Virus record (IMG/VR): IMGVR_UViG_3300045988_161046 | Location: 37,807-101,806 of that record | DNA length: 64,000 bases | Origin: a virus | Reading direction: 5' to 3' (one strand) | Shown: one piece after another, positions 6,537 to 63,999 of the stretch | How positions within the stretch are numbered: position 1 is the stretch's first letter | Layout: every line of letters starts with the position of its first letter | Position numbers and translations under genes: made by a program | The notes under the pieces: model-generated | The model's input: the letters and a program-made list of their open reading frames with translations, nothing else | Told to the model about the DNA's origin: nothing | Databases searched by the model: none

Positions 6537-7529
6537 TCAAAACTCCACCACGCTCTGTTCTTCCTCCCACGCATCATTGAGTGATACCGAAATGGTGGAA
6601 TGGTGATTATAGTAAGAGCCGCTTACTACCGTAACATGGTTGCGCTGCAAACTGATGTTCGATAGCTTAAACGAGGTGTAAGGCTCGGTGCTGCCCTTGC
6701 GGTTCATGGTGAAGGTGATGTCCGTAGTATAGCCATCCTTCGGCACCAGGAAATAGTAGAAGAGGGAAGAGGAGGTTTTGCCGGCATATCTCGTAACGTC
6801 AGCGATACGCAGGTTTGATACCTTGCCGGTGGCGGCAAAGGTCTGCCAGTCCCATTGTTTATATTCATCGAGCTGTAACTGCAGGGTACTGCAATCTTCC
6901 GGATATGTTCCGGTGTTCTTTACCGTCAGTTTCGCTACGATACGTTCCAGTTGGATATTGATACTCTGGTTCTGACCGACGCTTATACTCACGTCCTGCA
7001 CTGCGCCGAAGCTGTCAGAGTTCTTCGTGCTCGTAAGCACAGCAGGAAGGACACCATCGGCAGACACCGAAAAGGCAGTATTATCTGCCAGACTCCATAA
7101 CGAGCCATCAGCAGAGAGTAGGGTAGGGGTTTCGCTTCTCGTAGCTATCACCTTCAGCGTATGATTGCCGTAATCGAGACTCAGGGATGGCTCTGCAAAA
7201 TCCTCGGCATCGGCAGTCTGGTGCAACACCTGGAGCAGTTTGCCGCTTGCCTTGTCGTAATCGAAGATGTAGAGGTCGGTCATCGCCTTGCCGTTGGCAG
7301 CAAGCTCGGCACGCGTGATAGGGTAGGCGATCCGTCGGCACTGGCTCACGCTCACGTCACCGCCTTCTGGCGAAGTAAACCGCAGTCTTACCATAGTCTT
7401 GCCCGTCATAGGCCGGCTGCCTCCGTTCTCTACTGCATCTTCCACATACTCGGTGCATGAGGTATTCATCATCATGCACGCTGCCATCATCGCAAAGGTG
7501 GTGGCAAACAAAAACTTCTTAGTTCTCAT
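6537..7529 (-). CDS. lipoprotein, possibly fimbrillin (Mfa/FimA)-like
   Basis: Signal plus lipobox MRTKKFLFATTFAMMAACMMMNTSC; overall beta-rich; the fimbrillin call is a weak impression only. Confidence 0.55.
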   Translation of the reverse strand: MRTKKFLFATTFAMMAACMMMNTSCTEYVEDAVENGGSRPMTGKTMVRLRFTSPEGGDVSVSQCRRIAYPITRAELAANGKAMTDLYIFDYDKASGKLLQVLHQTADAEDFAEPSLSLDYGNHTLKVIATRSETPTLLSADGSLWSLADNTAFSVSADGVLPAVLTSTKNSDSFGAVQDVSISVGQNQSINIQLERIVAKLTVKNTGTYPEDCSTLQLQLDEYKQWDWQTFAATGKVSNLRIADVTRYAGKTSSSLFYYFLVPKDGYTTDITFTMNRKGSTEPYTSFKLSNISLQRNHVTVVSGSYYNHHSTISVSLNDAWEEEQSVVEF

Positions 7530-7634: not shown

Positions 7635-8465
7635 CTATTCCGTCAGGTTCGGGTACATATCGTATTTGCTGGCGGCTTCCTGCTGCCACTCGTAAGACTT
7701 ACTTTTGTATGCTTCCTCCTGATACTCTTTATCCAGGAACTCGTTCCACTGCTTGTTAAATTCATCCTGCACGAATATCCTTATCATTCCGAGATACTTC
7801 TTTTCTTTATCATAGATGATACGGTTTTCCTTTTTGCGGTCGTCAGCATTCGGAGAAGTTGATTTCCTGAAGAAAACTCCAAATTCAACCTTAGAACGAA
7901 ACAGCTTGCGGTATTCTATCAGGAAAGGAACTAGGCGGTCTCTCAGCTTTTCTAATATCTCCTCTTCCTCATCCTCTAAACCACTAGCCGAAGAACGTAG
8001 AATCTCATCTAAAGACATTACTACCACATTCCTGTCTGTCTCTACCGTCAGTTCACAATACCAACATTCATCTTCAGAATATCCGTCCTTATAAAAACAG
8101 TGGTTTACGAACACTTTTAAGGAACCAGTCATATTCGATTTATCTATATGAACATCATAATTTTCCAGATTAGGAATAAGTGATGAAATATATTTAGTAT
8201 ATCCAAAGATATAGCATAGATTTTCAAAAGGTATCGTTTCGCCACGATGGGCGATGACTGGGTTATCATCAAAGTCGTCCTTTGCACCTGCAGGGATATG
8301 CCAGTAGTCATCATCGCCGATATAATACGGCTCGTCTAATCTATCTGGAATATCTTTATCTTTCTTCCATGCTATACCAACACGCTCACTCAATATGCCA
8401 TACTCATCAACGAAAATGGCATGATCATTATAAGGAATGGCTACTATTTCTTCATTATCTTTCAT
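7635..8465 (-). CDS. hypothetical protein
   Basis: ORF track; 276 aa, acidic. Confidence 0.6.
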   Translation of the reverse strand: MKDNEEIVAIPYNDHAIFVDEYGILSERVGIAWKKDKDIPDRLDEPYYIGDDDYWHIPAGAKDDFDDNPVIAHRGETIPFENLCYIFGYTKYISSLIPNLENYDVHIDKSNMTGSLKVFVNHCFYKDGYSEDECWYCELTVETDRNVVVMSLDEILRSSASGLEDEEEEILEKLRDRLVPFLIEYRKLFRSKVEFGVFFRKSTSPNADDRKKENRIIYDKEKKYLGMIRIFVQDEFNKQWNEFLDKEYQEEAYKSKSYEWQQEAASKYDMYPNLTE

Positions 8466-8562
8466 GTTTCTTAGTTTTAAAATTGTTCTTTATATATATC
8501 TAAGTAACGCAAGGGTTTCCGGAATTATTATATACCCTCACGTATTTTTTATTAAAATCTGC

Positions 8563-8661
8563 TCAAGCAGCACGCCCTGAAAAGGCAGCAGCTCCTAGCC
8601 CAGGGCAGCGCCCTGGGTAATCATAAGCGCGCCCCTTTCGCCCTGTAAGGGCAAAAGCTTT
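8563..8661 (+). repeat. REP/MITE-like element, copy A (inverted partner at 20095-20192)
   Basis: Core palindrome cccagggcagcgccctggg; about 80 percent identical to the reverse complement of 20095-20192; overlaps the 3' end of CDS 8595-10349. Confidence 0.8.
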
Positions 8662-10349
8662 TTCTCGTTTCCAGGTGGTGGCATAGGCTGCGCAGCCACA
8701 CCCACCAGATGGTGGATTTTTCTTGCGTCTATGCCCTTATCTCGCCCAGAAGGTGTAGTTGTAGGCGACGATACAAGATAGCCGCATACAGACTTAAAAT
8801 CTCTGGTGTACGATGGTGATGCAAGCAACTCGGCAATATTCATCTTTACGATAGCCGCAGGAACGGAAGCATAAGGGTGTTTTATTTCTTTCTCTTCTTC
8901 CTCCTTATCCTGTGCCAAATCTGCATGCTCCTTCGCCTTCAATGCATCCTTGAACATTTTATCCAGCTTCACGCCCTTGTAGGCGAAGAAAGCGCAGCCA
9001 CGATAACTGTTAGCCTTATTCCGTCTATCATCAGGCATGAACTCCTTGCAGAAACCGGAAAGGGTGTAAACCTTGCCCTGATATACCACCTTGTTATTGT
9101 CTATCGTGATAACCCTCTGCCCACCATGGATAAAAGTAATGATGTCGCCAGGCTCGATACCGATTTTATCAAAAGCAAACTTGCGGCTATCATCTACAGA
9201 CTTCTTTTTCTTCTCTGAAGATAATGCAGCTTTCTCTTCTGCCGCAGGAGCAGTGATTTCGCAGGTCTTCTGTAATAGCTTAACACCTTTGCCTGGTTCC
9301 CCCGCATCATATACGCCATCAGCCACCTTTTCGCCGATATATGAATCACCATCCTTGCGAGGGCAGAGCAGATAAACGTTTCCGTTCTCACTCTCAGCCA
9401 TCTTCAGAGTCTTCTCATTGATACCCAGATAGAGAATATCCAACTGAGGGATAGAGAGAAGATGCTCTGTGCCGAAACTAAGGGCAAAGCTATGTTTCAA
9501 TACTTCATCGGTGGCAAAGGTGGCTACGTTCTCGCCCATCTTTACCGTGATAACCTTCTCGCCCTTCTTTCCGGAAAGAGAAACATATTCCTCTCCAGAT
9601 ACAGAATAGATCATCTTGCGGATAGCATCCCAGCTGCCGCCGATACGGACGCAATATCCGTCGAAGATGTTGCCGAAGCAGGATGCCCAGTCTACGAACC
9701 GACAAGGAGAAGGTTCATAAGAAGTCATGCCATCAAACTCTATTACGGTAGTCTCTTCACGATTATCCAGTTTCACGGCCGCCAGTTCGTACACTTCACC
9801 CGGCTTCATCTTTGCGCACATCTTCTTCCAGGTCTTCGCATTGATGAGCATTTCGCGGGTATCCCCCGATTTCTGGGTGATGGTAACAGGCATAGCCAGC
9901 AGCTTATGGCTATCAGTAGCCACCAGGCGGTTTCTCTCTGCATCTATAAATATACTGATTATTGCCTCCATATCATGCTTTTTATAGACGAAATCGCAAA
10001 GTTCTGCCATCTCCTTGGTAGCCTGAAAACATACGCAGCCACGTTCCTTCTCGTTCTCTTCCTGATAAGTAAACATGCGCGCATTCTTGCCAATGCCGGC
10101 AAGACCCTCGAACTTAGTAACAAGACGGAAGATATACGCAGCAGCAAACTCGCAGCGGAAGCTGCCTACCTCTATCTGGAATGACTGATCTTTATCTGCA
10201 TCACCCCAATAAAAAATCTTACCCATGTTCTTTGCTATCTCGCTGGCACGGAAACAACCGTGGTCGTTTCTTACCATCTTCTGCCAAATCATTTCGGCTA
10301 TCTCATACAGTTTGTTGAGGATAGCCATATTCAGTTCCTTATTTGTCAT
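8595..10349 (-). CDS. sliding-clamp (DnaN)-like domain protein with extra N- and C-terminal domains
   Basis: ERNRLVATDSHKLLAMPV resembles the clamp motif LVATDGHRLA; later ...ALSFGTEHLLSIP...NVYLLCPRK resembles the clamp C-terminal domain; last ~25 aa are encoded by the REP-like repeat. Confidence 0.4.
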   Translation of the reverse strand: MTNKELNMAILNKLYEIAEMIWQKMVRNDHGCFRASEIAKNMGKIFYWGDADKDQSFQIEVGSFRCEFAAAYIFRLVTKFEGLAGIGKNARMFTYQEENEKERGCVCFQATKEMAELCDFVYKKHDMEAIISIFIDAERNRLVATDSHKLLAMPVTITQKSGDTREMLINAKTWKKMCAKMKPGEVYELAAVKLDNREETTVIEFDGMTSYEPSPCRFVDWASCFGNIFDGYCVRIGGSWDAIRKMIYSVSGEEYVSLSGKKGEKVITVKMGENVATFATDEVLKHSFALSFGTEHLLSIPQLDILYLGINEKTLKMAESENGNVYLLCPRKDGDSYIGEKVADGVYDAGEPGKGVKLLQKTCEITAPAAEEKAALSSEKKKKSVDDSRKFAFDKIGIEPGDIITFIHGGQRVITIDNNKVVYQGKVYTLSGFCKEFMPDDRRNKANSYRGCAFFAYKGVKLDKMFKDALKAKEHADLAQDKEEEEKEIKHPYASVPAAIVKMNIAELLASPSYTRDFKSVCGYLVSSPTTTPSGRDKGIDARKIHHLVGVAAQPMPPPGNEKKLLPLQGERGALMITQGAALG

Positions 10350-13420: not shown

Positions 13421-13448
13421 TTTTTTACCTTTTTACCCTTTTACCTTT
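13421..13448 (-). repeat. Class-B array B3
   Basis: ttttttacctttttacccttttaccttt. Confidence 0.75.
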
Positions 13449-22316: not shown

Positions 22317-23168
22317 ATGAAAAAGAATTTTTTATCTATGATGAAACGTTCCATGATGGCTATCTGCACAGTGGTGGCCATGGGAATAATTACGGCTTCG
22401 CTGGCGGCTTGCAGCAGCAGCGAGGACGAGAGCGAGAGCGAGAAGAATGCGGCTAAGGTGAAGGAATATCTTGCCGGAAATGAGTGGACCATCAACAGCA
22501 CCAGCGGTACTTATTCTTACTACAAGAACCACATGGTTTACTATGAGGGCGAAGGAAGCTGGTCATCGGGCGGTCTCTTCGGAGAGCCTAACACAGCCTT
22601 CGGCTACTGGCAGATGGATGGCGACAGGCTTACTACCCGCTTCGAGGTAGGTACTCCCGAAAGCTTCAATATCAAGAATCTGCTGAACGAGACGATTTCG
22701 GGCGTGCATCTGCAGGAGAGCAACAAGCTTACGGGAAGCAGGGTATCGGTAAGCATCGATATGAGACCGCTGATTGTGGGTACCTTCGCCAACGGCAATG
22801 AATGCCAGATGAGATGCGGCAATACGCTGAATGATATTTCGGATGAGACGAGCCATGATGCGGCGCTGCGGGGTACCTGGTATTGCATCGTAACGATTAC
22901 AAAGGACGGAAAGAAGAGGGGTTGCATGGGGTCCATGACGTTTAATGAGGATGGCACCATGCACATGGTGATAGAGGGTGAGAAGGACTTCACTACCACC
23001 TATTCTACGAAGAACGGAAAGGTTACTATCAATGGTTATCTGGTAAAGGATCATGTAGCTACCTTCTATTATACGAACCTTAACGGTATAGAGATTAAGC
23101 TGTATAGCTGCGAGAACGGCTATCTTTCGTCTATATGGTTTAAAAATAGGGAAGACGCGAAGCGATAA
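22317..23168 (+). CDS. lipoprotein (cargo/moron candidate)
   Basis: Signal plus lipobox ...MGIITASLAAC followed by SSSEDESESE linker. Confidence 0.65.
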   Translation: MKKNFLSMMKRSMMAICTVVAMGIITASLAACSSSEDESESEKNAAKVKEYLAGNEWTINSTSGTYSYYKNHMVYYEGEGSWSSGGLFGEPNTAFGYWQMDGDRLTTRFEVGTPESFNIKNLLNETISGVHLQESNKLTGSRVSVSIDMRPLIVGTFANGNECQMRCGNTLNDISDETSHDAALRGTWYCIVTITKDGKKRGCMGSMTFNEDGTMHMVIEGEKDFTTTYSTKNGKVTINGYLVKDHVATFYYTNLNGIEIKLYSCENGYLSSIWFKNREDAKR

Positions 23169-23328
23169 AGGTAAAAAAGTAAAAAGGTAAAAAGGTAAAA
23201 AGAGCCTAGCGGGAGATAGGGACTCCTGCTAGGCTCTTTTCTTTTAGGACCAGCGATAGAATCGCTGGGGACGGAGGCAAGGGGGTAAGGTTCTTTTTAC
23301 CTTTTTACTTTTTTACCTTTTTACCTTT
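23167..23328. repeat. composite B-hairpin-A-B structure between convergent genes
   Basis: B arm 23167-23202, hairpin gagcctagc...gctaggctc 23202-23236, Class-A copy 23247-23278, inverted B arm 23293-23328. Confidence 0.85.
23247..23278 (+). repeat. Class-A hairpin element copy 3
   Basis: ggaccagcgatagaatcgctggggacggaggc. Confidence 0.9.
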
Positions 23329-26809: not shown

Positions 26810-28258
26810 TTAATCCAAGTCGTAAGTAAAGTTACCACCACGAAGGAAGACTATAGATGCGAAAGTTTCCAATGGGTAGATGTTTTGTTGCCTTCCCAAA
26901 TTAAGTTTTTCAATGATGCGCTTGCTTGTAGTACAGAACTTATATTTCTCACTATTAGCATCATCCTTGAAAGAAAACATCACCCAACAGCGACCACTTT
27001 TATTTGCTATCGTCACATTATCCTCGAAATCGTGAATGATTATCGGTACATGTGTCTGTGCCAACTCTGCAAGTTTCTTCTCCAGTACGTCAAAGACACG
27101 CTTACCATCCTTATCCACATTTACTTGACTTGTAGTAATTCCATGTTCTTTAAAACTCATGTTATTTTCCTTTAATATCGTATTCCATAAATTATTACAT
27201 TTTCCCCATTTAGCTATTCCCCAATAGGAAGCATACAACTCTTTCCTTCTTTTGCGGCTCTTTACTCCATGAAAGCTTTTCACCATGTTGAGTTTGGTAC
27301 GCTTACGCATTCTCATGTTTTTACGGGAAAATACATATCCCACAAAGTCGATGCTGCGACCATCTATCAGCTTACTCTCATCCATCAATGGTGCAACATA
27401 GCTACTACATTTCACTACCATTCCAATACGACTAAGAATATCATCAAAGCACCTCAATAACTCATTGGCTTCTTCCTTGGTTCTAACCATCGCAACTATA
27501 TCATCGCAATGCCTATGATAAAACTCTATGTGCAATTTCTGCTTGGCATATCTGTCAACTTCCGAAAGTACGAGATTGCCGATTATCTGCTTGATGCAGT
27601 TACCTAGTGTTATACCTCGTTCTTCACCTACATAAGCAAGTGGAGTATTCGAAGTCCAAGGACACGTTGCACGTTTCTTGGCATCTTCTTCCAGCAACAA
27701 AGGCTCAATATCCGATTCATAGTCTAAAACCGTCTTCTCTATTAGTTCTAAGAATAGGTCATCATCAATGTACCTTCTCAACGCATTCATTACAACCTTG
27801 TGAGGCAAAGACGGATAGAACTTCCTTATATCTAGCTTTACTACGTAATGAAGATTAGGATGCTTACGCAATAGCTGTTGGGTTCTCAAAGCTGCGAATA
27901 CTTGACCCTTACCCTTTCTTCCTGCCGAAGAATCGTATATCAGAATCTTCTCAACTATAGGCTCGAACACTACCTTAATGGCATGATAGAGGATATTCCA
28001 AGGCATGAAGTGTTGTGGATATATCACTCTGTCCTTATCCTTTGCGTGAAGAACCCTGGGACGATAAGGCTTCGTAGGATATTCTCGCAAAATTATCATA
28101 CTTTGAATCTTTTCGAGATTTGCAGTCTCATTTTTAAGAAACTGCTTCACGTACCAAGCTTCCTTATCTTTTACCACACTTGTTGCATCATTCGCACCTT
28201 CCAATAAGGTTTCCATCTTTATCACCTTGTCAATAAGATGCCTTGCTTTCTTTGTCAT
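26810..28258 (-). CDS. DGR reverse transcriptase
   Basis: RT motifs LDIRKFYPSLPH, GITLGNCIKQIIGNLVLSEVD (DGR-type (I/L)GxxxSQ-like), HCDDIVAM; sits directly downstream of TR; ~150 aa C-terminal extension. Confidence 0.85.
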   Translation of the reverse strand: MTKKARHLIDKVIKMETLLEGANDATSVVKDKEAWYVKQFLKNETANLEKIQSMIILREYPTKPYRPRVLHAKDKDRVIYPQHFMPWNILYHAIKVVFEPIVEKILIYDSSAGRKGKGQVFAALRTQQLLRKHPNLHYVVKLDIRKFYPSLPHKVVMNALRRYIDDDLFLELIEKTVLDYESDIEPLLLEEDAKKRATCPWTSNTPLAYVGEERGITLGNCIKQIIGNLVLSEVDRYAKQKLHIEFYHRHCDDIVAMVRTKEEANELLRCFDDILSRIGMVVKCSSYVAPLMDESKLIDGRSIDFVGYVFSRKNMRMRKRTKLNMVKSFHGVKSRKRRKELYASYWGIAKWGKCNNLWNTILKENNMSFKEHGITTSQVNVDKDGKRVFDVLEKKLAELAQTHVPIIIHDFEDNVTIANKSGRCWVMFSFKDDANSEKYKFCTTSKRIIEKLNLGRQQNIYPLETFASIVFLRGGNFTYDLD

Positions 28259-28730: not shown

Positions 28731-28749
28731 GCTGACCCTAAAGGTCAGC
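28731..28749. other. 7-bp-stem hairpin at the target gene stop (VR-flanking)
   Basis: gctgacc-ctaaa-ggtcagc. Confidence 0.6.
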
Positions 28750-30039
28750 TCCGTTTACGATTTTCGGTAATGCGCCATAATAAGCGAGACGAGCCCCGCA
28801 ATCCGCCCTGCGGATATCGAAAGCGTTACTCGAATGGACGCAACCGAGACCGCCGCGCGACCGGGCGCCGGAATAGCCACCCCAGATACAGAGCTGCCCA
28901 ACAGGCTTATTATTGCCGTCATAGCACCAATACTTATCTCCCCAACGGCTACCAGAGCCACCTCCACCTTGTGAAGGAATGAGGTCGAAATGTTCACCAA
29001 TCGCCATCTTTGCTATCCACATTTCTTGACTTCCCAATCGTTGAATAGTACGATATGTTCCTGTAGGATGGCTAATAAGTTCCGCATCGGTCGGCAGTCG
29101 ATTACCTTCGTATATAAACGCCTCTAGTCCAGTCTGTCCTTCATTGTTTACATTACCGAAATAGATACCTTGTCTCATTTCCCATTGCCAGTTGTACCAG
29201 TCCTCGACACCAAAGAGAGATACACGACAAGCATTCGGTGCATTAGTTAACGTGATAGGTATCTTACCGCAACTATCTCCAAGTGATATTGTTGCACCCG
29301 TCTTCAACTGAGAAACTCCACCCCAGTTGTCTGCCCATTCACCTTCACCGCCAACACCATTTCCGATATTAGCTTGTACGTTAGGATTGCCATACTCGGA
29401 TAGGTTTGTCATCATTCCCCATTGACCATGCTCGTAGCAAGTGATACCATAATCCTTACCATTGTTTCTAGCGAGATTCCAGAAATCACGGATAAATCTG
29501 CTTCCTGATACATCAATGTTCTTACCGCTACGAGAATGAAGAGCATTACCAGCAACACTACCCATGTATGCACCAATCATCGGATGCTCGATATAATAGC
29601 CACCAATAGGATATTGTGACTGCCATACAACATTGCATCCCATTGATGCATCATACTTAACGACAAAATAAAGGCGTGGAGCTACCACGAATACATCACC
29701 TTTCGATTCATCAACGGTCGTACCATCCGCAAAAATCGAACTATTGATAGATGATAGTTTTGCCATCTTCTCACCTCCAGTCTTCACAAGGTAGCGACCG
29801 ATAGCTCTCTTGTACTCTTCCCATAAGGAGAGATTACCTATTCTTCCCCAATTTTGACTATCTTCGTCTTGTTTGATAGGTGTACCCCACGCTATCAGAG
29901 CCAAATCAAGTTGATTAGTCTGAATAGAGTTAGCCAAATCAGACAGCTTGATACGTCTGAGCGAGCCACCAACCTCTATCAATAAAGTATCACCCTTAAC
30001 CATTGATGATACCAATGCTACTGTTGCAAGATTTTTCAT
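28738..30039 (-). CDS. DGR variable protein; receptor-binding/tail-fibre candidate with C-type-lectin-like C-terminus
   Basis: VR lies in the last ~50 codons (...CIWGGYSGARSRGGLGCVHSSNAFDIRRADCGARLAYY...). Confidence 0.85.
   Translation of the reverse strand: MKNLATVALVSSMVKGDTLLIEVGGSLRRIKLSDLANSIQTNQLDLALIAWGTPIKQDEDSQNWGRIGNLSLWEEYKRAIGRYLVKTGGEKMAKLSSINSSIFADGTTVDESKGDVFVVAPRLYFVVKYDASMGCNVVWQSQYPIGGYYIEHPMIGAYMGSVAGNALHSRSGKNIDVSGSRFIRDFWNLARNNGKDYGITCYEHGQWGMMTNLSEYGNPNVQANIGNGVGGEGEWADNWGGVSQLKTGATISLGDSCGKIPITLTNAPNACRVSLFGVEDWYNWQWEMRQGIYFGNVNNEGQTGLEAFIYEGNRLPTDAELISHPTGTYRTIQRLGSQEMWIAKMAIGEHFDLIPSQGGGGSGSRWGDKYWCYDGNNKPVGQLCIWGGYSGARSRGGLGCVHSSNAFDIRRADCGARLAYYGALPKIVNGADL
28780..28896 (-). 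repeat. DGR variable repeat (VR)
   Basis: 16 mismatches to TR, all at TR coding-strand adenines. Confidence 0.9.
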
Positions 30040-30064
30040 ATTTTGCTATTTTTATGTTACTAAA

Positions 30065-31270
30065 TCAGTTACCAATTAAGTATTCTCCGTTCTCATCAAC
30101 GAGGGGTTCAGAACCATCAGAGAAGAAGTCGAAGCTCGGCTTGTATTCAGCATCACATCTTATCTCCAACTCATCATCAGCAGTTTCGCCTAAACCAGTA
30201 TCAGAGATATTGAAGATTGCCGTATCGCCCTCTTGCCATTGCCTTGTAGTTGTAGCACCGCCATTTTCGGCAATAGTGCTCCAATTGAGTTTGAGGACAT
30301 TAGCAGGGCAGTCCACGATGTTACCCTCTGAATTGACTAGAGCAATCTGTTGTCGGTTGTCAACTCCAGGAGATATGTCTACGTTCTGTCCTGCCGATAC
30401 GCTATACTTCGGATAGGTTCGGGAGACAGATATTTGCTTGTTGCATACTTCCGTATCGCCCACAAATGCCCTAATTACGTATAATGCCGAATTAATCAGT
30501 CTTAAATCAAGTGCGATGTAACTTGTGTTGATTGCTGCCACCTCATTCATTCCTACGCTTATCTGTGTCATCGAAGAACCGCTCATCTTGTAGAGCTTGA
30601 TAGTGTAGCCAGAAGTAATACTCTTTGCGCCCTTGTAGATGTGGAGAGGAATATTTCTCAGATAAGCCTTCTCATCAATGCAAGCGTTCCTAACAGCATC
30701 GGATGCAGCTATCATTCCATGAGCTACCTTGTAGTCGTACAGAAGCAATCTATCTAACATCGGATTGTAGATGATAGTCTCATCATCATCAATAGCCATT
30801 GAATAGGCATCATCGCTCTTTGCAACCGTGTTCAGAACTACCTCATCTGTAAGGATAGGAACATTGATTTTGGTTCGATAGTCAACGATGTCAGCCTTGA
30901 ACCTCAGAGCAAATCGTTCTGTTACTGCTACATTACGGAATATGGTAAGGTCTCCACGTGTAGCACCATCCTGATTAATTGAGTAATCCGATGCAGCCCA
31001 TACATTGCTTATATCCTCGCCGTTGACAAGCCACACCATGTTGGCAAGTACCGCATTTGCTTGCTGATACTTCCACGTTCCATCGCTTGCATAAGCTGTG
31101 ATGTCTGGGTGTAACACACAAGGTGTGTTGGCTCGGTTCGGCTCGAAGCTACTATTAACCACGTTCCACACTTGCGTTGTAGGAGAGCCGCCCGACACAC
31201 ATACGATTGATTTTGCCGTATTGAGAGGTGCAAAAGACCTTCTTATTCTTACTGCGTTGTTTGTTGCCAT
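30065..31270 (-). CDS. virion structural protein (tail/fibre module)
   Basis: ORF track; beta-rich; synteny only. Confidence 0.55.
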   Translation of the reverse strand: MATNNAVRIRRSFAPLNTAKSIVCVSGGSPTTQVWNVVNSSFEPNRANTPCVLHPDITAYASDGTWKYQQANAVLANMVWLVNGEDISNVWAASDYSINQDGATRGDLTIFRNVAVTERFALRFKADIVDYRTKINVPILTDEVVLNTVAKSDDAYSMAIDDDETIIYNPMLDRLLLYDYKVAHGMIAASDAVRNACIDEKAYLRNIPLHIYKGAKSITSGYTIKLYKMSGSSMTQISVGMNEVAAINTSYIALDLRLINSALYVIRAFVGDTEVCNKQISVSRTYPKYSVSAGQNVDISPGVDNRQQIALVNSEGNIVDCPANVLKLNWSTIAENGGATTTRQWQEGDTAIFNISDTGLGETADDELEIRCDAEYKPSFDFFSDGSEPLVDENGEYLIGN

Positions 31271-34707: not shown

Positions 34708-35769
34708 CTAGATGGAGGCGAAGGGGTTGCCGTTGATACCTAGAGTGGCGGTAAAGGAAACGGAATACATATTCTTGTTGGTTTCGTCCTTGATGGTTAT
34801 CTCATCTTCAAGATTGATGATACAAGGAAACCAGGCATCATTTGCTTTCAGCCATACGTGCCCAGACATCAGGAACTCATGGAGATACCACTGCTGCCAT
34901 GCCTTGGTGAGCGGGTCACTCTGATAGAGCCAACTTTCACGATCATTCTGCTTATGAATAGCCGAACGGGAGAACTCATTGAAGGTTTCCTGAATAGCTT
35001 TCGTATATTGCGTGCTCTCGACACTCATATTCTGAGAATAGGATTTCGGAACACTGATGCTCTCCATACAACCGAAGCGGTTAATGAAACGGAAGGTGGT
35101 ACGGTCTTCAGCTTCAGAGGATGGCAGGGCATAGATAGGGTGTCCATGAATGCTCTGCGCACCCTCCTTCGTGATTTCCTGCTCCCTAGATACAGGGGCG
35201 GTCAGTGAGCTGCTGGTAGCTAAGTTCTGCCCTTCGCTATAGGAGACAGGATAAACAAAGCTCTCGCCTACAACGGCTATTTCGTGGGTATCAGTCGGTT
35301 TGCAGGAGAGAAGGGTGACAGCCTTCGTTACGCCCGATTTCAGGCGCTCTATATCGCTGAAGGCACCAGCTATGCAGCGAAGGTTGGTGCTTCCTCCATT
35401 CTTTGAGCCATCAGCTGGATAATAGACTTCGCCTACACCGGTATGCACCTCGCCGTTGTTATCCATATACTCATCGTAGGCTTTGATGTACCAGCTTACT
35501 ACCGGATAGGTAGATGGAGTAGCAGTATACTTATAGCTATCCAGCGTAATGCGGAGAGCAGAGGATATATCGAGCGATACATCTCTTTCCTCGGTGGTAA
35601 CAGGAATGGTGAGCTTATTGGTTTCGTAACTTCCCGTACCATCATCGAAATGCACCTCTACAATGACCCGATGGAAAGATGGCTTCGTAGCCAAGGAAGG
35701 GGTGATGGTAAAGGTTATCGGGTTTCCGGCAAAGACCGAACCCGATGTGAGATTGATTTTCAGTGCCAT
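34708..35769 (-). CDS. virion structural protein
   Basis: ORF track; synteny only. Confidence 0.55.
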   Translation of the reverse strand: MALKINLTSGSVFAGNPITFTITPSLATKPSFHRVIVEVHFDDGTGSYETNKLTIPVTTEERDVSLDISSALRITLDSYKYTATPSTYPVVSWYIKAYDEYMDNNGEVHTGVGEVYYPADGSKNGGSTNLRCIAGAFSDIERLKSGVTKAVTLLSCKPTDTHEIAVVGESFVYPVSYSEGQNLATSSSLTAPVSREQEITKEGAQSIHGHPIYALPSSEAEDRTTFRFINRFGCMESISVPKSYSQNMSVESTQYTKAIQETFNEFSRSAIHKQNDRESWLYQSDPLTKAWQQWYLHEFLMSGHVWLKANDAWFPCIINLEDEITIKDETNKNMYSVSFTATLGINGNPFASI

Positions 35770-35788
35770 AGTTATTCTTTTTTTTGAA

Positions 35789-35887
35789 GGGTAAAAAGGT
35801 AAAAGAGTAAAAAGGTAAAAAGAACCTTAACCGCTCTTTTGCCTTTTACTATTTTTTACCTTTTTACCTTTTTACTTTTTTACTTTT
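35789..35887. repeat. Class-B inverted pair B5 (long hairpin after ACP stop)
   Basis: gggtaaaaaggtaaaagagtaaaaaggtaaaaag ... cttttactattttttacctttttacctttttacttttttactttt. Confidence 0.8.
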
Positions 35888-36120
35888 AAAATCACAAGAT
35901 TGACTACATCAGAAACGAGTTTGCAATCTTTCGCCTCTTCCGGAGTAATCTTGATGTGGAACATCATTTCCACCTGCTGGATCATATCGAGAAAATCAAT
36001 AGACTCAAGTTCTACCTCGTCACGAAGATTAGAGTGCTCTGTTACCTCGTGTTTTACCCATTCAGTTTTCACGCTGTTCACGATGGTAATAATGCGAGAT
36101 GTTATTTCTTCTTTTTTCAT
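35872..36120 (-). CDS. acyl carrier protein
   Basis: 82 aa acidic helical protein; LESIDFLDMIQQVE matches the ACP phosphopantetheine-Ser motif (D/E)S(L/I)D. Confidence 0.7.
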   Translation of the reverse strand: MKKEEITSRIITIVNSVKTEWVKHEVTEHSNLRDEVELESIDFLDMIQQVEMMFHIKITPEEAKDCKLVSDVVNLVILKVKK

Positions 36121-36122
36121 AA

Positions 36123-37325
36123 CTATACTTTTGAAATAATAAATGAGGAGTTTGTACCGCCAAAGCCGAAGGCATTACAGAGAATATGGTGAGGGGAGTA
36201 CCACTTAGGGCGCATTACCAGGTTAAGATGAGGGAAAGCATTCTCATCGGTGGTGGCTGCATGGAACAGACGGCCATAAGCGAACATCGCTACGGCTTGC
36301 ACGGCTTGAGATACGCCCGCCATCCAACACTCGTGACCCGTCATCCCTTTTGTAGCTACTACGTTCGGACAGATAGGGAAAATTCTCTCTATTGCCTTTG
36401 CCTCGGCTTCATCGCCCATCGGTGTACCCGTAGCATGAGCAAGTACTACGTCTATCATACCTTCGTCCAATCCTGCGTCCTCGATAGCATTCAGCATCGA
36501 CACTTCTTCCTGATAGCTATCAGGGGTAGTGATGGCCTTGCCGTTTGAAGAGAAACCATAACCGGAAAGGGAAGCGAAGGAAGGCACCTTCTCTTCTTTC
36601 AATCGAAGACTATCCGATGGTTCGAGGATGATGCAGGCTGCACCACCAGATGGGGCGAGTCCGTTTCTATTCTTGCCAAACGGCTGCACCTTATCGGGTG
36701 AGAAGACACGCAGCGCATCGAATGCCTCCATGCTATAAAGTGATGTCGTTTCCTGCGTACCAACAACGATAACCATCTCGGTCTGTTTGCTATCAAGAAG
36801 CATCTTGGCAAGACCGATTGCATGGCCACCTCCTGCACAGGCCGCACTTACGGTAAGTGATAGGCCATGAATACCGAGGATAGTAGCCAGGTTCATACTG
36901 ATAGCGGAATTAAGTGTTTTGAACAGAGTTCCTGTCTCCAGGTATCTATTATTGAGATCATAATCTACATGATGAACTACCTCTCTTGTTTCGTAACACT
37001 CAGAGTCGTTACTAACGATGACAGAAACATTATGGTTCTGAAGGAAATCATCGCTTATCTTTGCTTTCCTCAAAGCTTCAAAAACGGCATCAAGTGCATA
37101 AAAACCATGTAAGGGCATACTATTGAGTTGTGTCCGAGTTAACTTTTTCGAGTAATCTCCTTTCCAACCAGTCACACGACCGCACAACTCCGAAAGATAA
37201 TGCTCTCTGATTTTGTCGTGATATAGTCCGCATTTGCCCTTGTAGAGGTTCATGGCTACTTCTCTTGTATTTCTACCCATGGCAGAAATAATACCGGTTC
37301 CGGTAATCAATATCTTTTTATCCAT
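36123..37325 (-). CDS. beta-ketoacyl-ACP synthase I/II-type (FabF/FabB-like)
   Basis: Cys-His-His triad contexts SAACAGGGH, AHATGTPMGD, KGMTGHECWMAG, plus NAFGFGGTN; its stop lies 2 nt before the ACP ATG. Confidence 0.8.
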   Translation of the reverse strand: MDKKILITGTGIISAMGRNTREVAMNLYKGKCGLYHDKIREHYLSELCGRVTGWKGDYSKKLTRTQLNSMPLHGFYALDAVFEALRKAKISDDFLQNHNVSVIVSNDSECYETREVVHHVDYDLNNRYLETGTLFKTLNSAISMNLATILGIHGLSLTVSAACAGGGHAIGLAKMLLDSKQTEMVIVVGTQETTSLYSMEAFDALRVFSPDKVQPFGKNRNGLAPSGGAACIILEPSDSLRLKEEKVPSFASLSGYGFSSNGKAITTPDSYQEEVSMLNAIEDAGLDEGMIDVVLAHATGTPMGDEAEAKAIERIFPICPNVVATKGMTGHECWMAGVSQAVQAVAMFAYGRLFHAATTDENAFPHLNLVMRPKWYSPHHILCNAFGFGGTNSSFIISKV

Positions 37326-37379
37326 TTTTATTTTCTTTTTATGTTATAAAACATATTTTCTATTTAAAAGCTTTTGCCC

Positions 37380-40184
37380 TTACAGGGCGTACACTGTTAA
37401 CTCAACCTCGCCCATTCCCGTCTTGGCATCGATGGTGGTGTTTACCTTGTCTATGAGGCATTTCATACCGCCTATATTCCACCATTCCTGCCAGTGGTTC
37501 GGTATATCGGCCACTTGCGCTACGGTGGTGGTACATCTCACCATAAACTTCTTTCTGTTTAAGAGGAAGTAAGCGTAGGGGAGGACGAAGGTATCAAAGA
37601 GGCCACGGGAGCGAACCTTCTTAACCACCTTACCATTTTTATCTACCTCATCTTTATCACAAAGTACTACATTTTGATACTTCGGATCACTCAACCACGA
37701 TGGTTCCTTGAAAGCACGTATCTTGAGTGAGAATTTTTCACCTTCGCCCGTTCCTTCCTGAATACCATTATAGTCAAATTCATTACCCATCATATCCAAT
37801 GAATCGCATGCCAGGGCATACTTACCAGATACGGTACGCCATTTGGACGTTCCGAAGTGGTCGTAATTATAATCGTAAGACTGGCGGGTAGCATCGCTAC
37901 CACCGCCTCGCATCAAAGCAACCGCATATCCCCAGCGTGAATCATCCTGCAACGGAGAGTTGCCATCATCGGTGCTCGAAGGGTCGTAGCTTTCTACGAG
38001 TGATAGTGTCTGCTGCATGTAGAAATCACAGAAAGCAGTAGAGATAGTCTGATTGATAATCTGCTCCACAAACTCATGCTCCATATCCTCATCTACATAA
38101 GCACAGAGGATAGGCTGACCGTCAGCGATAGTTACACCATATTTCTTGCCGTTGTAGGAGTCGATTGCCTCGTGAGAGCCATAGGCAGCTTCTATCTCTT
38201 TGAAATAGTTCACGTCATTAAACGGAACAGGAGTAAAATCTACCGAAATATCGTGAACGAAATCTTTGTTCTCATCACTGCAATCTCCATATTCTACACC
38301 CTTGAACTGACCTACTTCAAAGAGTACCGGTTTCAAGTCGGCTGTCGTGGTTGCATCACTATTCACTTTTACGCGATAAGCGTTGCCAGTCTTGCGGTCG
38401 ATATAGCAGTGCTTATCTCCACTACTCAGATTATGGAAGAAATCGATGTAGTCGAGATTGTAGACCGTGGAATTATCGCCACTATCGGGCGCAGGGTAAT
38501 CGATGTAGTCGTAATCGGTAGAGTAACCCATATTCTTGTTTCTACGGCTATCGAGTACATTCTGACGCTGATCTTTTGCATCACTCTCTGCAGAATAGCG
38601 CATACGCACACCTGTAATTTTCTCTGTCACCGGAATCATTGAATGAATATTGGCATGAAATGTTCTTGCCTTATCGCCACTCTTGCGCAGCACATCACGG
38701 GTGAGATAGGCTGTTACCTTCTTTTGTTCGTAATCATACGAAAACTTGATACCAAAGGCGCTTTCCAGCGAAGAGATAATGGTGCTTACACTCTCGTCGG
38801 GGAAATTCCCGCTGTTGGCTACCATATTGAGCACGTTCGCCTGAACATTGAACTTGCTGATTTTAGCCTCGATGCTGATACCGGTTACCTTGCCGCCATC
38901 ATCGCGTACCTCACCTACCTGCACATGCTCGGTCGTACCCTCTGGTGTACGGAGGGTCAACTCCTGCACATCCTTATCCTCGGCTTTCACGATATTAATC
39001 TTTCCACCGCAACCGCGGCTTTCGAGCCATGAATTGATATGCTCCTGACTTTGAAAATAACCTGTCTTTATTTCACCAGCTTTCTTCTTCTTGGCGATGA
39101 CTTCGGCATCAGTTTCGCTGTAATAAGTACCATGATGAGGATGTTGAATGGTATCGTAGCTGCATACGGTCGTGAAGAAGCAGAGGTGTTTCAAATCCTC
39201 TATCTCCATTAATGCCTTCTTGTCGAATGTAACACCAAGATAGTCAAAGAGGCAATCGAGGAAATAAAGCACATAGAAGCAGATACCAGACTGCGGGCGT
39301 TTTGCATCCAATACCCAATAAGGATAAAGGTCTTCATTCGTCCAGGTACAATCCTTCATGCTGATAATGCCGCTATCAGTTTTTTTTCCTTCTTCGTCCA
39401 AACCATGATGTTTATAACAGATACGTGCGTTGCAATAAGAAGCGGCTCTACCCGCGCCGTCGGTTTCACCATAGGCTGCGGCGGTATTGATGTAGTTTCC
39501 GTTACTAGCGATGGCAGGCTCATTTACAATGTGGTTCTGGGGATAGGAGCGCTCTGACATAATCTTAGCATCTCCTTTTTTGTGATGGGTGCCTGTAGTA
39601 GTCCATTCCACGCAATTAGCAGGATAAGAGAAACCGAGTGCCTGCGGTTCGAGAACCTTGCTTACGCTTACGTGGGCGGCTCTGATTTCGTGGATTTCCG
39701 TCTTATCATCCTTATGCTTACCTCCGGTAACAAAAACATTTACCTTTACCACAGGGTCGCTCTCTATATCCACCCTCACATTACCTATCTTCTCGCCGAT
39801 GATAATCTGGTCCTTGACCGGAATATCACGACATTGCAGGTCGCTGATAAGCTCGCTGAAACTCTGGGTGCTGGCATCGATGTTCATACTGAGGGAATCG
39901 GTTATCTCCTCATCGTCCTGCATGACCAAGGTACCGCTGCGGAATGGCAGTCCGTCGGCATGAATGCGGGTAGGCAGGTGCTCCATGTTTACGGCTTTTA
40001 CCGCTGCATGCACGTCTTCTATGTTCTTTACCAGCCAGCGGTTGCCATCTAGCGGAATAGAGAAAGGATAGGAGAACATTTCCGTATCGTTGAACACAGG
40101 GTTCTGGTCCTCTATATCTATAGAGAAATCATCGGGCAAAGCTACCGGCTTGTCATTGATTAATATCGTAAGATGCGAGTTCAT
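37380..40184 (-). CDS. large (934 aa) tail/baseplate structural protein
   Basis: ORF track; size and synteny only. Confidence 0.55.
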   Translation of the reverse strand: MNSHLTILINDKPVALPDDFSIDIEDQNPVFNDTEMFSYPFSIPLDGNRWLVKNIEDVHAAVKAVNMEHLPTRIHADGLPFRSGTLVMQDDEEITDSLSMNIDASTQSFSELISDLQCRDIPVKDQIIIGEKIGNVRVDIESDPVVKVNVFVTGGKHKDDKTEIHEIRAAHVSVSKVLEPQALGFSYPANCVEWTTTGTHHKKGDAKIMSERSYPQNHIVNEPAIASNGNYINTAAAYGETDGAGRAASYCNARICYKHHGLDEEGKKTDSGIISMKDCTWTNEDLYPYWVLDAKRPQSGICFYVLYFLDCLFDYLGVTFDKKALMEIEDLKHLCFFTTVCSYDTIQHPHHGTYYSETDAEVIAKKKKAGEIKTGYFQSQEHINSWLESRGCGGKINIVKAEDKDVQELTLRTPEGTTEHVQVGEVRDDGGKVTGISIEAKISKFNVQANVLNMVANSGNFPDESVSTIISSLESAFGIKFSYDYEQKKVTAYLTRDVLRKSGDKARTFHANIHSMIPVTEKITGVRMRYSAESDAKDQRQNVLDSRRNKNMGYSTDYDYIDYPAPDSGDNSTVYNLDYIDFFHNLSSGDKHCYIDRKTGNAYRVKVNSDATTTADLKPVLFEVGQFKGVEYGDCSDENKDFVHDISVDFTPVPFNDVNYFKEIEAAYGSHEAIDSYNGKKYGVTIADGQPILCAYVDEDMEHEFVEQIINQTISTAFCDFYMQQTLSLVESYDPSSTDDGNSPLQDDSRWGYAVALMRGGGSDATRQSYDYNYDHFGTSKWRTVSGKYALACDSLDMMGNEFDYNGIQEGTGEGEKFSLKIRAFKEPSWLSDPKYQNVVLCDKDEVDKNGKVVKKVRSRGLFDTFVLPYAYFLLNRKKFMVRCTTTVAQVADIPNHWQEWWNIGGMKCLIDKVNTTIDAKTGMGEVELTVYAL

Positions 40185-40191
40185 ATTCTGA

Positions 40192-40227
40192 TTTTTTACC
40201 TTTTTACCTTTTTACTTTTTTACCTTT
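40192..40227 (-). repeat. Class-B array B6, leader of 37380-40184
   Basis: ttttttacctttttacctttttacttttttaccttt. Confidence 0.8.
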
Positions 40228-43416: not shown

Positions 43417-43453
43417 TTTTTTTACCTTTTTACTTTTTTACTTTTTTACCTTT
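43417..43453 (-). repeat. Class-B array B7, between portal stop and next ATG
   Basis: tttttttacctttttacttttttacttttttaccttt. Confidence 0.8.
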
Positions 43454-55273: not shown

Positions 55274-55276
55274 ATA

Positions 55277-55297
55277 AAGGTAAAAAGGTAAAAAAAC
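55277..55297 (-). repeat. Class-B array B8
   Basis: aaaggtaaaaaggtaaaaaaac. Confidence 0.7.
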
Positions 55298-55302
55298 AAA
55301 AA

Positions 55303-61605: not shown

Positions 61606-61741
61606 AAAAGTAAAAAAGTAAAAGGGTAAAAAAAGCATTAGCCACCTTCTGCCTTTTCTTCTCGGACCAGCGATGGAATCACTGGGAACGGAGGCGAGAA
61701 TGGAGCCACGCAACCCCCGCCAGGCTCTTTTTACCTTTTTT
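61606..61741. repeat. composite B-A-B structure
   Basis: B arm 61606-61636, Class-A copy 61664-61695, short inverted B arm 61728-61741. Confidence 0.75.
61664..61695 (+). repeat. Class-A hairpin element copy 11
   Basis: ggaccagcgatggaatcactgggaacggaggcg. Confidence 0.85.
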
Positions 61742-62391: not shown

Positions 62392-63999
62392 CTATTTATT
62401 CTTCATGAATTGGTTAGCCTTATTCAGACTGTCATGCAGTCCATCACGACCGTACATGTTAATCTTAGCGTTGATAGGCTGGTTCAAACGCTGAATGAGC
62501 GCATTCACGGCTTGCAGGAACGCCGCATTGCTTGCTGCGCTGGCTGCTATCAGTCCGTCTGCCGCTGACGCGCCAGACGAAAGATTACCATTGTTCCCTT
62601 GCGTGCCCGCTGCAAGAATATCACCCACATTTCCATTGTCAAATGCCCTTCTTGCTGAGTTTCTTCCCGAATAGTTGCTGTCGTAATTGACAAGTGCCTT
62701 TAGTAATCCAGGATTGTTCATCATCATCGCATGAGTAGTTTCACGGCCAATCACGATTTCCGGTCCTTTCTCGGCTACGAGAGATGGCTGCCCGTTCACA
62801 GAGGTGGCGGTAGGTGTCGTGAGCATCTTTACGCCCTGCATCTGTTTGCCATCATCCTCCTTCGCCCAATACACTTCGTCGTTATCAGCCACGAATGGCT
62901 TCAAATCCTGCACGTTACCGCTATCGTAGGTAAGCATACCGGTTACGAGCTTGGTGTTGGTGGAAGATGTGTTACTCTTCTTCTTGCCACTGCTGAAGGC
63001 AGAGTTGAGTGCCCACTGGAGCAAGCCCATGAGGGTAGCCTTCACACCCGCGGCTGCAATAGGACCCGCGATAGGACCCAGGAAATCGAAACACTTAGCC
63101 ATCGCACCCGCGATAGAGAGGGTCATTCCTGCTTGCGTGCGGGCAGCATCCGATGCGGTAATGGCTTCGTTATTGGCTTGCGTTTCGGCAAGGGTGGTAG
63201 TGAGCGCCGTTTCCGTCATAGCCATACCCGCGTTCAAAGCCACCTTAGTGCCCTCACTCTGCTCCTTGTTTCCGGCAGCAGTTACATCCGTGATGTTCTG
63301 AACACCCTGGGTAGTTACCTTCTCACGATCCTCATTGCCCTTCTTTACCTCTTTGCTCAGTTCCTTCTGGTGCTTCTTCTCCTTCTTTAACTGGTTGGCT
63401 TTCTCCTCGTCTTCCTTGGATTTGCCGCCAGTCTTGAACTCGGTATTCATCACACCACCGATGAAGGAGCCAGTGATGCCGGCTGCGGCATCAGCGAAGG
63501 AACCGCCACCAGCGATAGCATCGGCTGCTGCTGTACCCGTCTGCGTGGCTGCATCATTATAGAACGCATCAGCATTGTCCCTGTTGCGATGTGCCCACGC
63601 ATGAGGAGCACCATTACCCTGCTCTTTTTTATTCGCCTGCTCGGGGGTTGCAGGGGGCGCGTATGGAGGCACAATAGCCGGACTGTCAGGATTGATAGGT
63701 GTACCATCAGGATTCCAGCCGAGAGCCGGCTGTTGAGGAGGCAGATTCTCGAAGTTAGACGGCGGTTGCTGAGTGAGATAAGATGCGCCCTCATCTACCA
63801 GTCGCACATACATCGGGTTGGTCTTTGTACCGAGCTTTGAGAAATCCTCCTTCACGGCATTGGCATTAGCGTTGGCTCTCGCTTTATCAATATCAGGCTG
63901 GGCTTTTTTCTTGGCTCGCTTGGCACCAGCATCATTGATAGCCTTCCACATCTGCGTATTCACGTCGTTGAGTGCCATATTACCCCATGATTCGAGCAT
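62392..63999 (-). CDS. tape-measure-like / internal virion protein, possibly N-terminally truncated by window edge
   Basis: Gly/Ala-rich segments with hydrophobic stretch ...GMTLSIAGAMAKCFDFLGPIAGPIAAAGVKATLMGLL...; the first ATG sits at the last bases of the window. Confidence 0.4.
   Translation of the reverse strand: MLESWGNMALNDVNTQMWKAINDAGAKRAKKKAQPDIDKARANANANAVKEDFSKLGTKTNPMYVRLVDEGASYLTQQPPSNFENLPPQQPALGWNPDGTPINPDSPAIVPPYAPPATPEQANKKEQGNGAPHAWAHRNRDNADAFYNDAATQTGTAAADAIAGGGSFADAAAGITGSFIGGVMNTEFKTGGKSKEDEEKANQLKKEKKHQKELSKEVKKGNEDREKVTTQGVQNITDVTAAGNKEQSEGTKVALNAGMAMTETALTTTLAETQANNEAITASDAARTQAGMTLSIAGAMAKCFDFLGPIAGPIAAAGVKATLMGLLQWALNSAFSSGKKKSNTSSTNTKLVTGMLTYDSGNVQDLKPFVADNDEVYWAKEDDGKQMQGVKMLTTPTATSVNGQPSLVAEKGPEIVIGRETTHAMMMNNPGLLKALVNYDSNYSGRNSARRAFDNGNVGDILAAGTQGNNGNLSSGASAADGLIAASAASNAAFLQAVNALIQRLNQPINAKINMYGRDGLHDSLNKANQFMKNK

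Follow-up and report, generated by a model that had tools for sequence, protein, structure and literature searches.

A ketosynthase and acyl carrier protein cassette of large gut phages as a putative host-dependent lipid-metabolism module

The 64,000-nucleotide stretch of viral DNA analysed here (the window; positions 37,807 to 101,806 of IMG/VR virus record IMGVR_UViG_3300045988_161046) carries on its minus strand a gene for a beta-ketoacyl-ACP synthase (ketosynthase, KS) followed immediately by a gene for an acyl carrier protein (ACP). As far as sequence can tell, the two very probably encode an active pair. What is new in this finding is a viral auxiliary lipid-metabolism module cut down to KS and ACP, with a phage-specific phylogeny, in an abundant clade of gut phages. 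We propose, with a probability of roughly 45%, that the pair is a host-dependent type-II condensing module redirecting host lipid synthesis, that is, an auxiliary lipid-metabolism cassette and not a part of the virion.

The ketosynthase and its carrier protein

The two genes and their catalytic positions are as follows.
36123..37325, minus strand: KS, 400 aa, with domains PF00109 and PF02801, assigned also by FabB/FabF alignment
36837-36839, 36435-36437, 36348-36350 and 36333-36335: codons of KS catalytic residues Cys163, His297, Lys326 and His331, respectively
35872..36120, minus strand: ACP, 82 aa, with domain PF00550, member of phrog_5934 'acyl carrier protein'
36001-36003: codon of Ser40, the phosphopantetheine-attachment residue of the ACP, in the motif LESIDFLD
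36118..36125, minus strand: KS-ACP junction (KS stop, 2-nt spacer, ACP start)

An initial annotation of this DNA had recognised both reading frames together with the KS motifs SAACAGG, AHATGTPMGD, KGMTGHECWMAG and NAFGFGGTN, the ACP serine motif LESIDFLDM and an ACP start codon 2 nt past the KS stop, and all of these are present on the minus strand. The KS ends in TAG, followed by 'tt' and the ATG of the ACP gene, a junction that suggests translational coupling. Both KS domains score well above their Pfam gathering cut-offs of 20.8 bits (PF00109, 94.4 bits, 1e-26; PF02801, 66.6 bits, 3e-18), and the ACP domain also exceeds its own (PF00550, 26.4 bits vs. 20.8, 8e-6). Among PDB sequences, the FabB enzymes of Vibrio, Brucella and E. 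coli align with the KS over its whole length (E 2.5e-39 to 1e-35), FabF follows at about 1e-31, and the ACP aligns with type-II ACPs, its Ser40 falling on Ser36 of AcpP.

When the KS was aligned by MAFFT with FabB and FabF from E. coli genome records, Cys163, His297, Lys326, His331, Thr299/301, Asp305 and Glu308 occupy the columns of the FabB/FabF catalytic sites, and Phe386/388 and the GFGG turn (G387-G390) also lie in equivalent columns, Phe388 being the gatekeeper. No active-site residue is missing relative to FabB/FabF, and these residues are invariant in 61/61 full-length phage relatives, so the assignment withstands the alignment by which the initial annotation had proposed to challenge it. 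The motif LESIDFLD is likewise invariant across window-type clades. The residues of FabB that dock the ACP, K63 and R66, are replaced in the phage KS, and helix II of the phage ACP keeps the acidic S+2/S+5 pattern E-S-I-D-x-x-D (here E-S-I-D-F-L-D); this combination fits a co-evolved pair that would still be recognisable by a host AcpS.

Both proteins are nevertheless divergent from housekeeping models. The KS meets neither the FabF (TIGR03150, 176.8 bits vs. 493.75) nor the FabB (NF005935, 166.1 vs. 630) cut-off of NCBIfam, and it falls into no PHROG family. The ACP remains below the AcpP-type equivalog cut-off (best 43.3 bits vs. 66) and is less acidic than AcpP (16 D+E and 12 K+R vs. 20 and 5), with an atypical ESID motif.

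The phylogenetic placement that the initial annotation had recommended was carried out with neighbour-joining trees and 200 bootstraps, and it put the phage enzymes in a clade of their own, for the whole of which FabB is the best curated model, every cut-off being missed. Window-type KSs are united at 100%, their union with the KSs of a second phage lineage (L062-type) is supported at 98%, and the larger group that adds a third (L473) and a few unplaced metagenome sequences at 75%. A 100% split sets phage KSs together with stand-alone cellular KSs apart from E. coli FabB, FabF, ApeO and ApeR. The only stand-alone match above 43% identity in a representative library of 1.84 billion proteins is another member of the phage clade (61%), in a list from this 50%-representative library that is dominated by multi-KS megasynthases and contains about 20 usable stand-alone entries. 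The nearest cellular KSs (35-40% identical) belong to metagenome-assembled genomes (MAGs) of Bacteroidales, Paludibacteraceae, Desulfobacterales and Planctomycetota, and their best curated model is FabB as well (321-414 bits, below cut-off). Around them lie further KSs, a fusion of KS and chain-length factor (CLF) that groups with ApeO at 98% bootstrap, an O-methyltransferase, two ACPs, GT2-LPLAT, phytoene-desaturase-like FAD enzymes, MMPL, SDR and B12 radical-SAM genes, a content that reads as the parts list of an aryl-polyene/flexirubin-like lipid pathway. The phage KS appears to be a FabB-like enzyme of a specialised-lipid lineage and not a captured housekeeping fabF. An orthologous relationship to ApeO/ApeR or FabF was considered and is ruled out by the cut-offs, by the 22% identity to ApeO/ApeR and by the 100% split.

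Conservation, insertion and relocation of the cassette

KS and ACP genes are adjacent in all 63 IMG/VR loci recovered by the KS search, including the divergent L062, and in 61 of these loci they occupy the same place in the gene order g387-g370-g217-g934-KS-ACP-g353-g687, including lineages at 57-63% KS identity. The survey of synteny that the initial annotation had called for thus returned the same neighbours down to 57% KS identity. The spacing between the two genes is at most 5 nt (-4, 1, 2 or 5 nt) in 34 of the 62 loci compared. Median pairwise ratios of nonsynonymous to synonymous substitution rates (dN/dS) are 0.12 for KS and 0.16 for ACP, so both genes are under strong purifying selection, and the G+C content and codon usage of KS are inside the range of neighbouring phage genes. 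A cellular-type metabolic gene with phage genes on both sides, in 63 loci with conserved synteny, is what is expected of an auxiliary metabolic gene.

The loci are distributed over 63 independent viral contigs of 50-110 kb. Related contigs measure 85-110 kb, and loci from one contig show circular permutation. A near-DNA search and a g934 protein search of 50,697 deposited phage records returned no member of the phage clade. In metagenome assemblies, where it is very common, KS sequences form more than 100 clusters at 83-95% identity, and the flanking genes are in clusters of up to 1,110 and 1,480 members. The copies present in GenBank Third Party Annotation records are named 'hypothetical protein', and for this reason the KS and ACP feature is effectively unannotated. 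Two KS copies are binned in MAGs of 'uncultured Prevotella sp.', and the window, with a G+C content of 45%, encodes Bacteroidales-type domains (BT4734_N, Mfa2-like); the host is probably a gut Prevotella-type bacterium.

One segment of the KS gene has a history of its own.
36650-37240 (KS residues ~45-210): KS allelic dimorphism and recombination breakpoint

Over the first ~210 residues, the window KS is 75% identical to those of loci L003, L004 and L058, with dS of 1.0-1.4; the remainder is 95% identical, with dS of 0.2-0.4, and dN/dS is low in both halves. The genes flanking the cassette are 91-100% identical to those of the same three loci at the DNA level. The window KS is therefore a minority recombinant N-terminal allele, common to L001, L002 and L060. 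Since the N-terminal half of the enzyme bears what we take to be, from FabB/FabF, the ACP-docking and acyl-pocket elements, the two alleles might have different preferences for primer or carrier.

The place of the cassette in the genome is defined by two genes.
37380..40184, minus strand: g934, upstream neighbour, a conserved large protein and, from synteny, the ancestral direct neighbour of g353
34708..35769, minus strand: g353, downstream neighbour, beta-rich, found directly after g934 in KS-less relatives
Around 8586-8676 in L423, L426, L435 and L438: direct g934/g353 junction

A g934 profile search identified four relatives without the cassette at this position (L423, L426, L435 and L438; g934 38-48% identical), in which only 12-15 nt separate the g934 stop from the g353 ATG, and the N-terminus of the g353 homologue matches (MAQKIEITSGS vs. 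MALKINLTSGS). A scan reaching 26% identity detected no KS elsewhere on these contigs, some of which are incomplete. Because KS-less relatives have both genes adjacent, the cassette must have entered the genome of the window-type ancestor precisely at the g934/g353 junction, and it is an old insertion, fixed ever since. The initial annotation had suggested a moron-type insertion. The insertion stands, as the cassette is missing at the same junction in related phages; the recent, repeat-bounded character does not, with the cassette fixed in 61 loci and the repeats shifting between them. Indeed, a recent moron is ruled out by the identical synteny at the lowest KS identities. Neither a promoter and terminator of its own nor flanking repeats mark the insert, and ancestral spacers measure 1-20 nt (17 nt between g934 stop and KS ATG, and as cassette spacers generally, in L036; 1-12 nt in L011); the scan for promoters and terminators used a sigma-70 consensus, which is unsuited to a Bacteroidota host.

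The same two-gene composition recurs at other genomic addresses. In a second lineage (L062, L080-L082, L441-L449 and P0128-bearing contigs), with KSs ~40% identical to that of the window, the order is ACP then KS with a 16-nt overlap, after a giant gene resembling a tape-measure protein (TMP) and before primase/ThyX genes, and the cassette adjoins DNA methylase and Pol III beta genes. A third lineage is represented by L473, a 160-kb contig in which KS then ACP (7995-9361) lie beside T4-type terminase, gyrase B, dNMP kinase and 5'-3' exonuclease genes. The catalytic Cys is kept in the KSs of the sister lineage and of L473. No further fatty-acid or polyketide gene was found near the cassette in second- or third-lineage loci. 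As a separate observation, L449 carries a second ACP ~5 kb downstream. Since the composition of the cassette is constant across structural, replication and packaging addresses, a function bound to tail proteins is improbable. A tblastn search of the 50,697 phage records with the window KS gave a best match of 37.8%, in an unannotated faecal contig, and otherwise matches of at most 29%; the latter were discounted as phage KSs, at least some of them being bacterial fab genes in records miscalled as phage, such as the one checked (H3), which is chromosomal E. coli fabB by mnmC.

The repeats near the cassette, together with related repeats in the window, are listed below.
35783..35891: long imperfect hairpin, arms 35783-35821 and 35853-35891, made of inverted (GGTAAAAA)n arrays
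1819-1852, 2843-2919, 13423-13448, 23167-23328 and 35787-35887: tandem 8-nt (GGTAAAAA)n arrays, intergenic
40194-40227, 43420-43453, 55276-55301 and 61606-61631: further intergenic arrays of the same kind
37326..37379, minus strand: spacer between g934 stop and KS start, 54 nt, with a 24-nt insert and then a 12-nt copy
37356-37379: 24-nt insert upstream of KS, belonging to the 24-mer repeat, which itself reaches into the g934 stop
37344-37355: 12-nt copy of the ancestral g934 3' end, TATGTTTTATAA (also given as TATGYTTTATAA)
8640-8663 (plus strand) and 37362-37385 (minus strand): 'REP-like' 24-mer CGCCCTGTAAGGGCAAAAGCTTTT, two copies in the window and no more

The hairpin that the initial annotation had noticed downstream of the ACP gene does exist: it folds at -34 kcal/mol (z = -4.6), runs over the final codons of the ACP gene and occupies the ACP-g353 spacer. 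Among relatives, it is present in L004 and absent from L001, L011, L020 and L036. The (GGTAAAAA)n arrays occur at no fewer than eight other intergenic sites of the window (at least 8; an 18-mer from the repeat has 31 matches vs. 0.17 expected), inverted pairs of them form long hairpins at three window sites, and in relatives they lie upstream of KS, between KS and ACP, or are absent. The arrays change place between near-identical relatives, and in this they act as mobile or recombinogenic elements of intergenic regions do. Where the window has its 24-nt piece, after the g934 stop and ahead of the 12-nt copy, L004 and L011 have an (GGTAAAAA)n array, and the copy resembles the target duplication that a small mobile or recombinogenic element leaves behind. 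The 24-mer combines a GCCCT/AGGGC stem with a AAAAGCTTTT palindrome, and its copy at 37362-37385 overlaps the g934 stop codon. A role of hairpin and 24-mer as scars of the cassette insertion is ruled out, the arrays being genome-wide and relocated or absent in close relatives; the view that repeats bound the insert had to be abandoned, with a hairpin that moves or is missing and some spacers of just 1-20 nt.

Proposed function and alternative explanations

The initial annotation had reported no acyltransferase, phosphopantetheinyl transferase (PPTase), reductase or dehydratase nearby, and this holds at the Pfam level in the window and in most of a relative's genome. Pfam scans covered the 59 window open reading frames (ORFs) of at least 82 aa and ~35 of the 39 kb beyond the window, taken from the 102-kb relative contig 160689, the last ~4.7 kb of which were compared to PDB sequences only, a less sensitive search. 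Neither PPTase, malonyl/acyl-transferase, ketoreductase, dehydratase nor enoyl reductase was found in the window ORFs or in contig 160689, and the Pfam scans found no CLF, thioesterase, methyltransferase or exporter in the phage. What the scans did give were DNA-metabolism, methylase, PAPS-reductase, holin, YopX and small GNAT matches. Beyond the window, in a relative (L520 9608-10225 and 12408-13400; L223 16225-16623), lie two ORFs with CxxxCxxC radical-SAM-like motifs and small GNAT acetyltransferases, none of them a recognised fatty-acid-synthesis enzyme.

Of the roles listed in the initial annotation, the rewiring of lipid or polyketide-like synthesis is kept and is the reading to beat, and acylation of a virion or tail protein is disfavoured in view of sister cassettes located by primase/ThyX or terminase/gyrase genes. 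The mechanism that we propose follows, step by step, the established chemistry of type-II synthases. A host AcpS-type PPTase would turn the phage ACP into holo-ACP, and host FabD would load it with malonate. The phage KS, a predicted Cys-His-His decarboxylating enzyme, would take an acyl primer from host acyl-ACP or acyl-CoA onto Cys163 and condense it with malonyl-ACP, yielding a beta-ketoacyl chain on the phage's own carrier, any reduction or dehydration of which would fall to host FabG/FabZ/FabI-K-type enzymes. During infection, part of the malonyl and acyl flux would be shifted to a phage-controlled carrier, and the kind or amount of a fatty-acyl or polyene-like lipid would be altered. Because other lineages hold the cassette in replication or packaging modules, its function would be independent of tail genes.

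Several considerations weigh against this proposal. With no more than 1-20 nt of ancestral spacer towards g934 and g353 in the window lineage, co-transcription with late structural genes is probable, an odd timing for metabolic reprogramming. For KS and ACP alone there is no obvious route into host lipids if the phage ACP is not accepted by the acyltransferases of the host. The basic life cycle does not require the cassette, which is missing altogether from related phages, and with the nearest cellular KSs at 35-40% identity, the cellular pathway context transfers only weakly.

A bolder extension, which we consider somewhat unlikely, holds that the cassette has spread to no fewer than three lineages of Bacteroidota phages with large genomes (90-160 kb), among them a very abundant clade of the human gut. 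The phage would direct the synthesis of a lipid or of something polyketide-like, with all accessory enzymes coming from the host. This product might be a modified lipid or pigment of the outer membrane, or a small molecule that serves signalling, anti-defence or the exclusion of superinfecting phages; through its recombining N-terminal half, the KS may adapt its choice of primer or carrier to different hosts.

That the nearest cellular KSs reside in aryl-polyene-like clusters, that the E. coli aryl-polyene cluster has a matching parts list and that the phage KS falls under every FabF and FabB cut-off would all agree with a contribution to specialised metabolism, in which the cassette would feed into a host type-II polyketide synthase (PKS) pathway of the aryl-polyene/flexirubin-like kind or stand in for one of its steps. 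For instance, the phage KS, with the carrier that accompanies it, might act in priming or as an additional elongating enzyme, and the outcome would be an altered outer-membrane pigment or lipid, or a small molecule for signalling, exclusion or anti-defence. We regard this as unlikely: ApeO and ApeR, at 22% identity, stand apart from the phage KS in the tree, the best model for the clade is FabB, and the phage has no detectable CLF, thioesterase, methyltransferase or exporter of its own.

The phage possesses just the two components that bind malonyl and acyl groups and none to finish a product, and its ACP is less acidic than AcpP, with the atypical ESID motif; these features could also be expected of sabotage or a decoy. 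The KS would then decarboxylate malonyl-ACP, or the ACP would sequester host FabD, AcpS or Fab enzymes, draining or blocking host synthesis, with host shut-off or the release of acetyl/malonyl-CoA and ATP for the phage as the outcome. This appears quite improbable, since a decarboxylase or decoy would tolerate the loss of Cys163 (as in KSQ/CLF-type proteins), yet no window-type relative (61/61 keep it) and no KS of the wider tree has lost this Cys, and the full condensation machinery, including Phe388, Thr299/301 and Lys326, is invariant.

A link to the virion, through an acyl group placed on a tail or baseplate protein or through packaged or ejected KS or ACP, draws on the location of the cassette, which is flanked by two large, conserved genes of structural type and whose very short spacers in the ancestral state imply co-expression with them, and on PHROG tail matches 5-8 kb downstream. 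It is very improbable in light of the sister cassettes by primase/ThyX/DNA methylase or terminase/gyrase genes, the presence of the g934-g353 pair in KS-less relatives too, the failure of Pfam scans to find an acyltransferase for ACP-to-protein transfer, and the lack of an assignable fold in g353 and g934. Finally, a passenger or artefact (bacterial contaminant, assembly chimera or decaying, functionless hitch-hiker) is barely credible: many 'phage' KS database matches are indeed bacterial fab genes at prophage edges, as in the case of H3, but here 63 viral contigs, hundreds of metagenome clusters, strong purifying selection, invariant active sites and phage genes on both sides effectively refute it.

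The cassette is thus a minimal chain-extending unit, fixed and strongly selected in a phage clade present in hundreds to thousands of gut metagenome assemblies. If it is active, abundant gut phages would reprogram the chemistry of fatty acids or polyene lipids in Prevotella-type hosts, and host lipids of this type shape outer membranes, vesicles and host immune signalling. If the phage does direct a product of its own, viral modules for natural products or lipid remodelling would form a class not described before. An active KS and ACP would also constitute a tractable two-protein system for learning how a virus taps a cellular type-II synthase.

The carrier phage and comparison with known systems

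The phage origin of the window is evident from tail PHROGs at 28738-31270, a head-maturation-protease-like gene, DNA methylases and ThyX, as well as a PriCT/BT4734-type primase, a GH108 lysin and MazG. A search of the window for tRNA genes was negative. The pair was described in the initial annotation as sitting amid virion genes, and it does lie in a block of large virion-type genes with conserved synteny, the sole basis for a 'tail/baseplate' label of this neighbourhood being the PHROG tail matches 5-8 kb downstream. The immediate neighbours offer little to refine this label. The product of g934 has no Pfam, PHROG or PDB match, its protein search against the 50,697 phage records returned nothing, and its AlphaFold2 model has a predicted local distance difference test score (pLDDT) of 29. 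For g353 (pLDDT 59), a Foldseek search of the PDB gave no match at E <= 0.001, just generic Ig/FN3 sandwiches. PDB profile searches likewise came back empty.

Two larger features were also recorded.
26810-28258: reverse transcriptase (phrog_1423, 1e-61), immediately downstream of tail-annotated genes
62392-63999: ORF running off the window end, C-terminus of a ~2,072-aa protein with a PhageMin_Tail (tape-measure-type) domain, equivalent to L121 5393-11611

The reverse transcriptase is probably that of a diversity-generating retroelement, and the PhageMin_Tail giant has an unusual location upstream of primase, ThyX and head genes. A ParA/AAA_31 ATPase (4992-5864) hints at plasmid-like maintenance, and an Mfa2/DUF6562-like fimbrial-anchor-type protein (6537-7529) and a lipocalin-like gene (22317-23168, plus strand) may be surface or lipoprotein morons.

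Full-text literature searches turned up no description of a KS and ACP phage cassette. To our knowledge, lipid-metabolism auxiliary genes of phages are known only as scattered cases, namely cyanophage desaturases, the isoprenoid genes of 'Flandersviridae' and stray ACPs. In the PHROG collection, phage ACPs of family 5934 are filed under 'moron, auxiliary metabolic gene'.

Compared to E. coli FabB/FabF and AcpP, the phage pair has the same two Pfam KS domains, length, catalytic triad, Lys, Thr-x-Thr, Phe gatekeeper, GFGG turn and ACP serine; it differs in the low identity of its KS (27% to FabB, 24% to FabF), in the loss of K63/R66, and in being a phage-encoded KS with a private ACP and without fabD/G/Z/I neighbours. 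The stand-alone cellular KSs (L065-L076) are closer, with 35-40% identity, a place on the same side of the 100% split and dedicated ACPs close by. They are, however, surrounded by at least eight pathway genes where the phage has a KS and one ACP, and the ACPs of their clusters are 13-21% identical to that of the phage. The aryl-polyene system of E. coli CFT073 (ApeO/ApeC/ApeR, ApeE/ApeF) is likewise type-II PKS-like with dedicated small ACPs, and ApeF is the best reference ACP for the phage ACP (27%), whereas ApeO and ApeR, the KSs at 22% identity, group with FabF outside the phage clade.

The concept of a private carrier and an elongating KS placed atop the housekeeping synthase has precedents in rhizobial AcpXL-FabF1XL/FabF2XL, for the very-long-chain acid of lipid A, and in mycobacterial AcpM-KasA/KasB. 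These cellular AcpXL and AcpM loci encode their own dehydratase, reductase or FabD. NCBIfam gives weak matches of the phage pair to AcpM and KasA/B models, and the likeness seen here is one of concept.

Among phages, the gut 'Flandersviridae' encode isoprenoid-pathway enzymes (PMC8008677), and predicted roseobacter prophages carry fabG-acpP-fabF in host operon order (PMC8224337). The latter may be host DNA at prophage edges, whereas the pair described here consists of KS and ACP only and belongs to a phage-specific clade.

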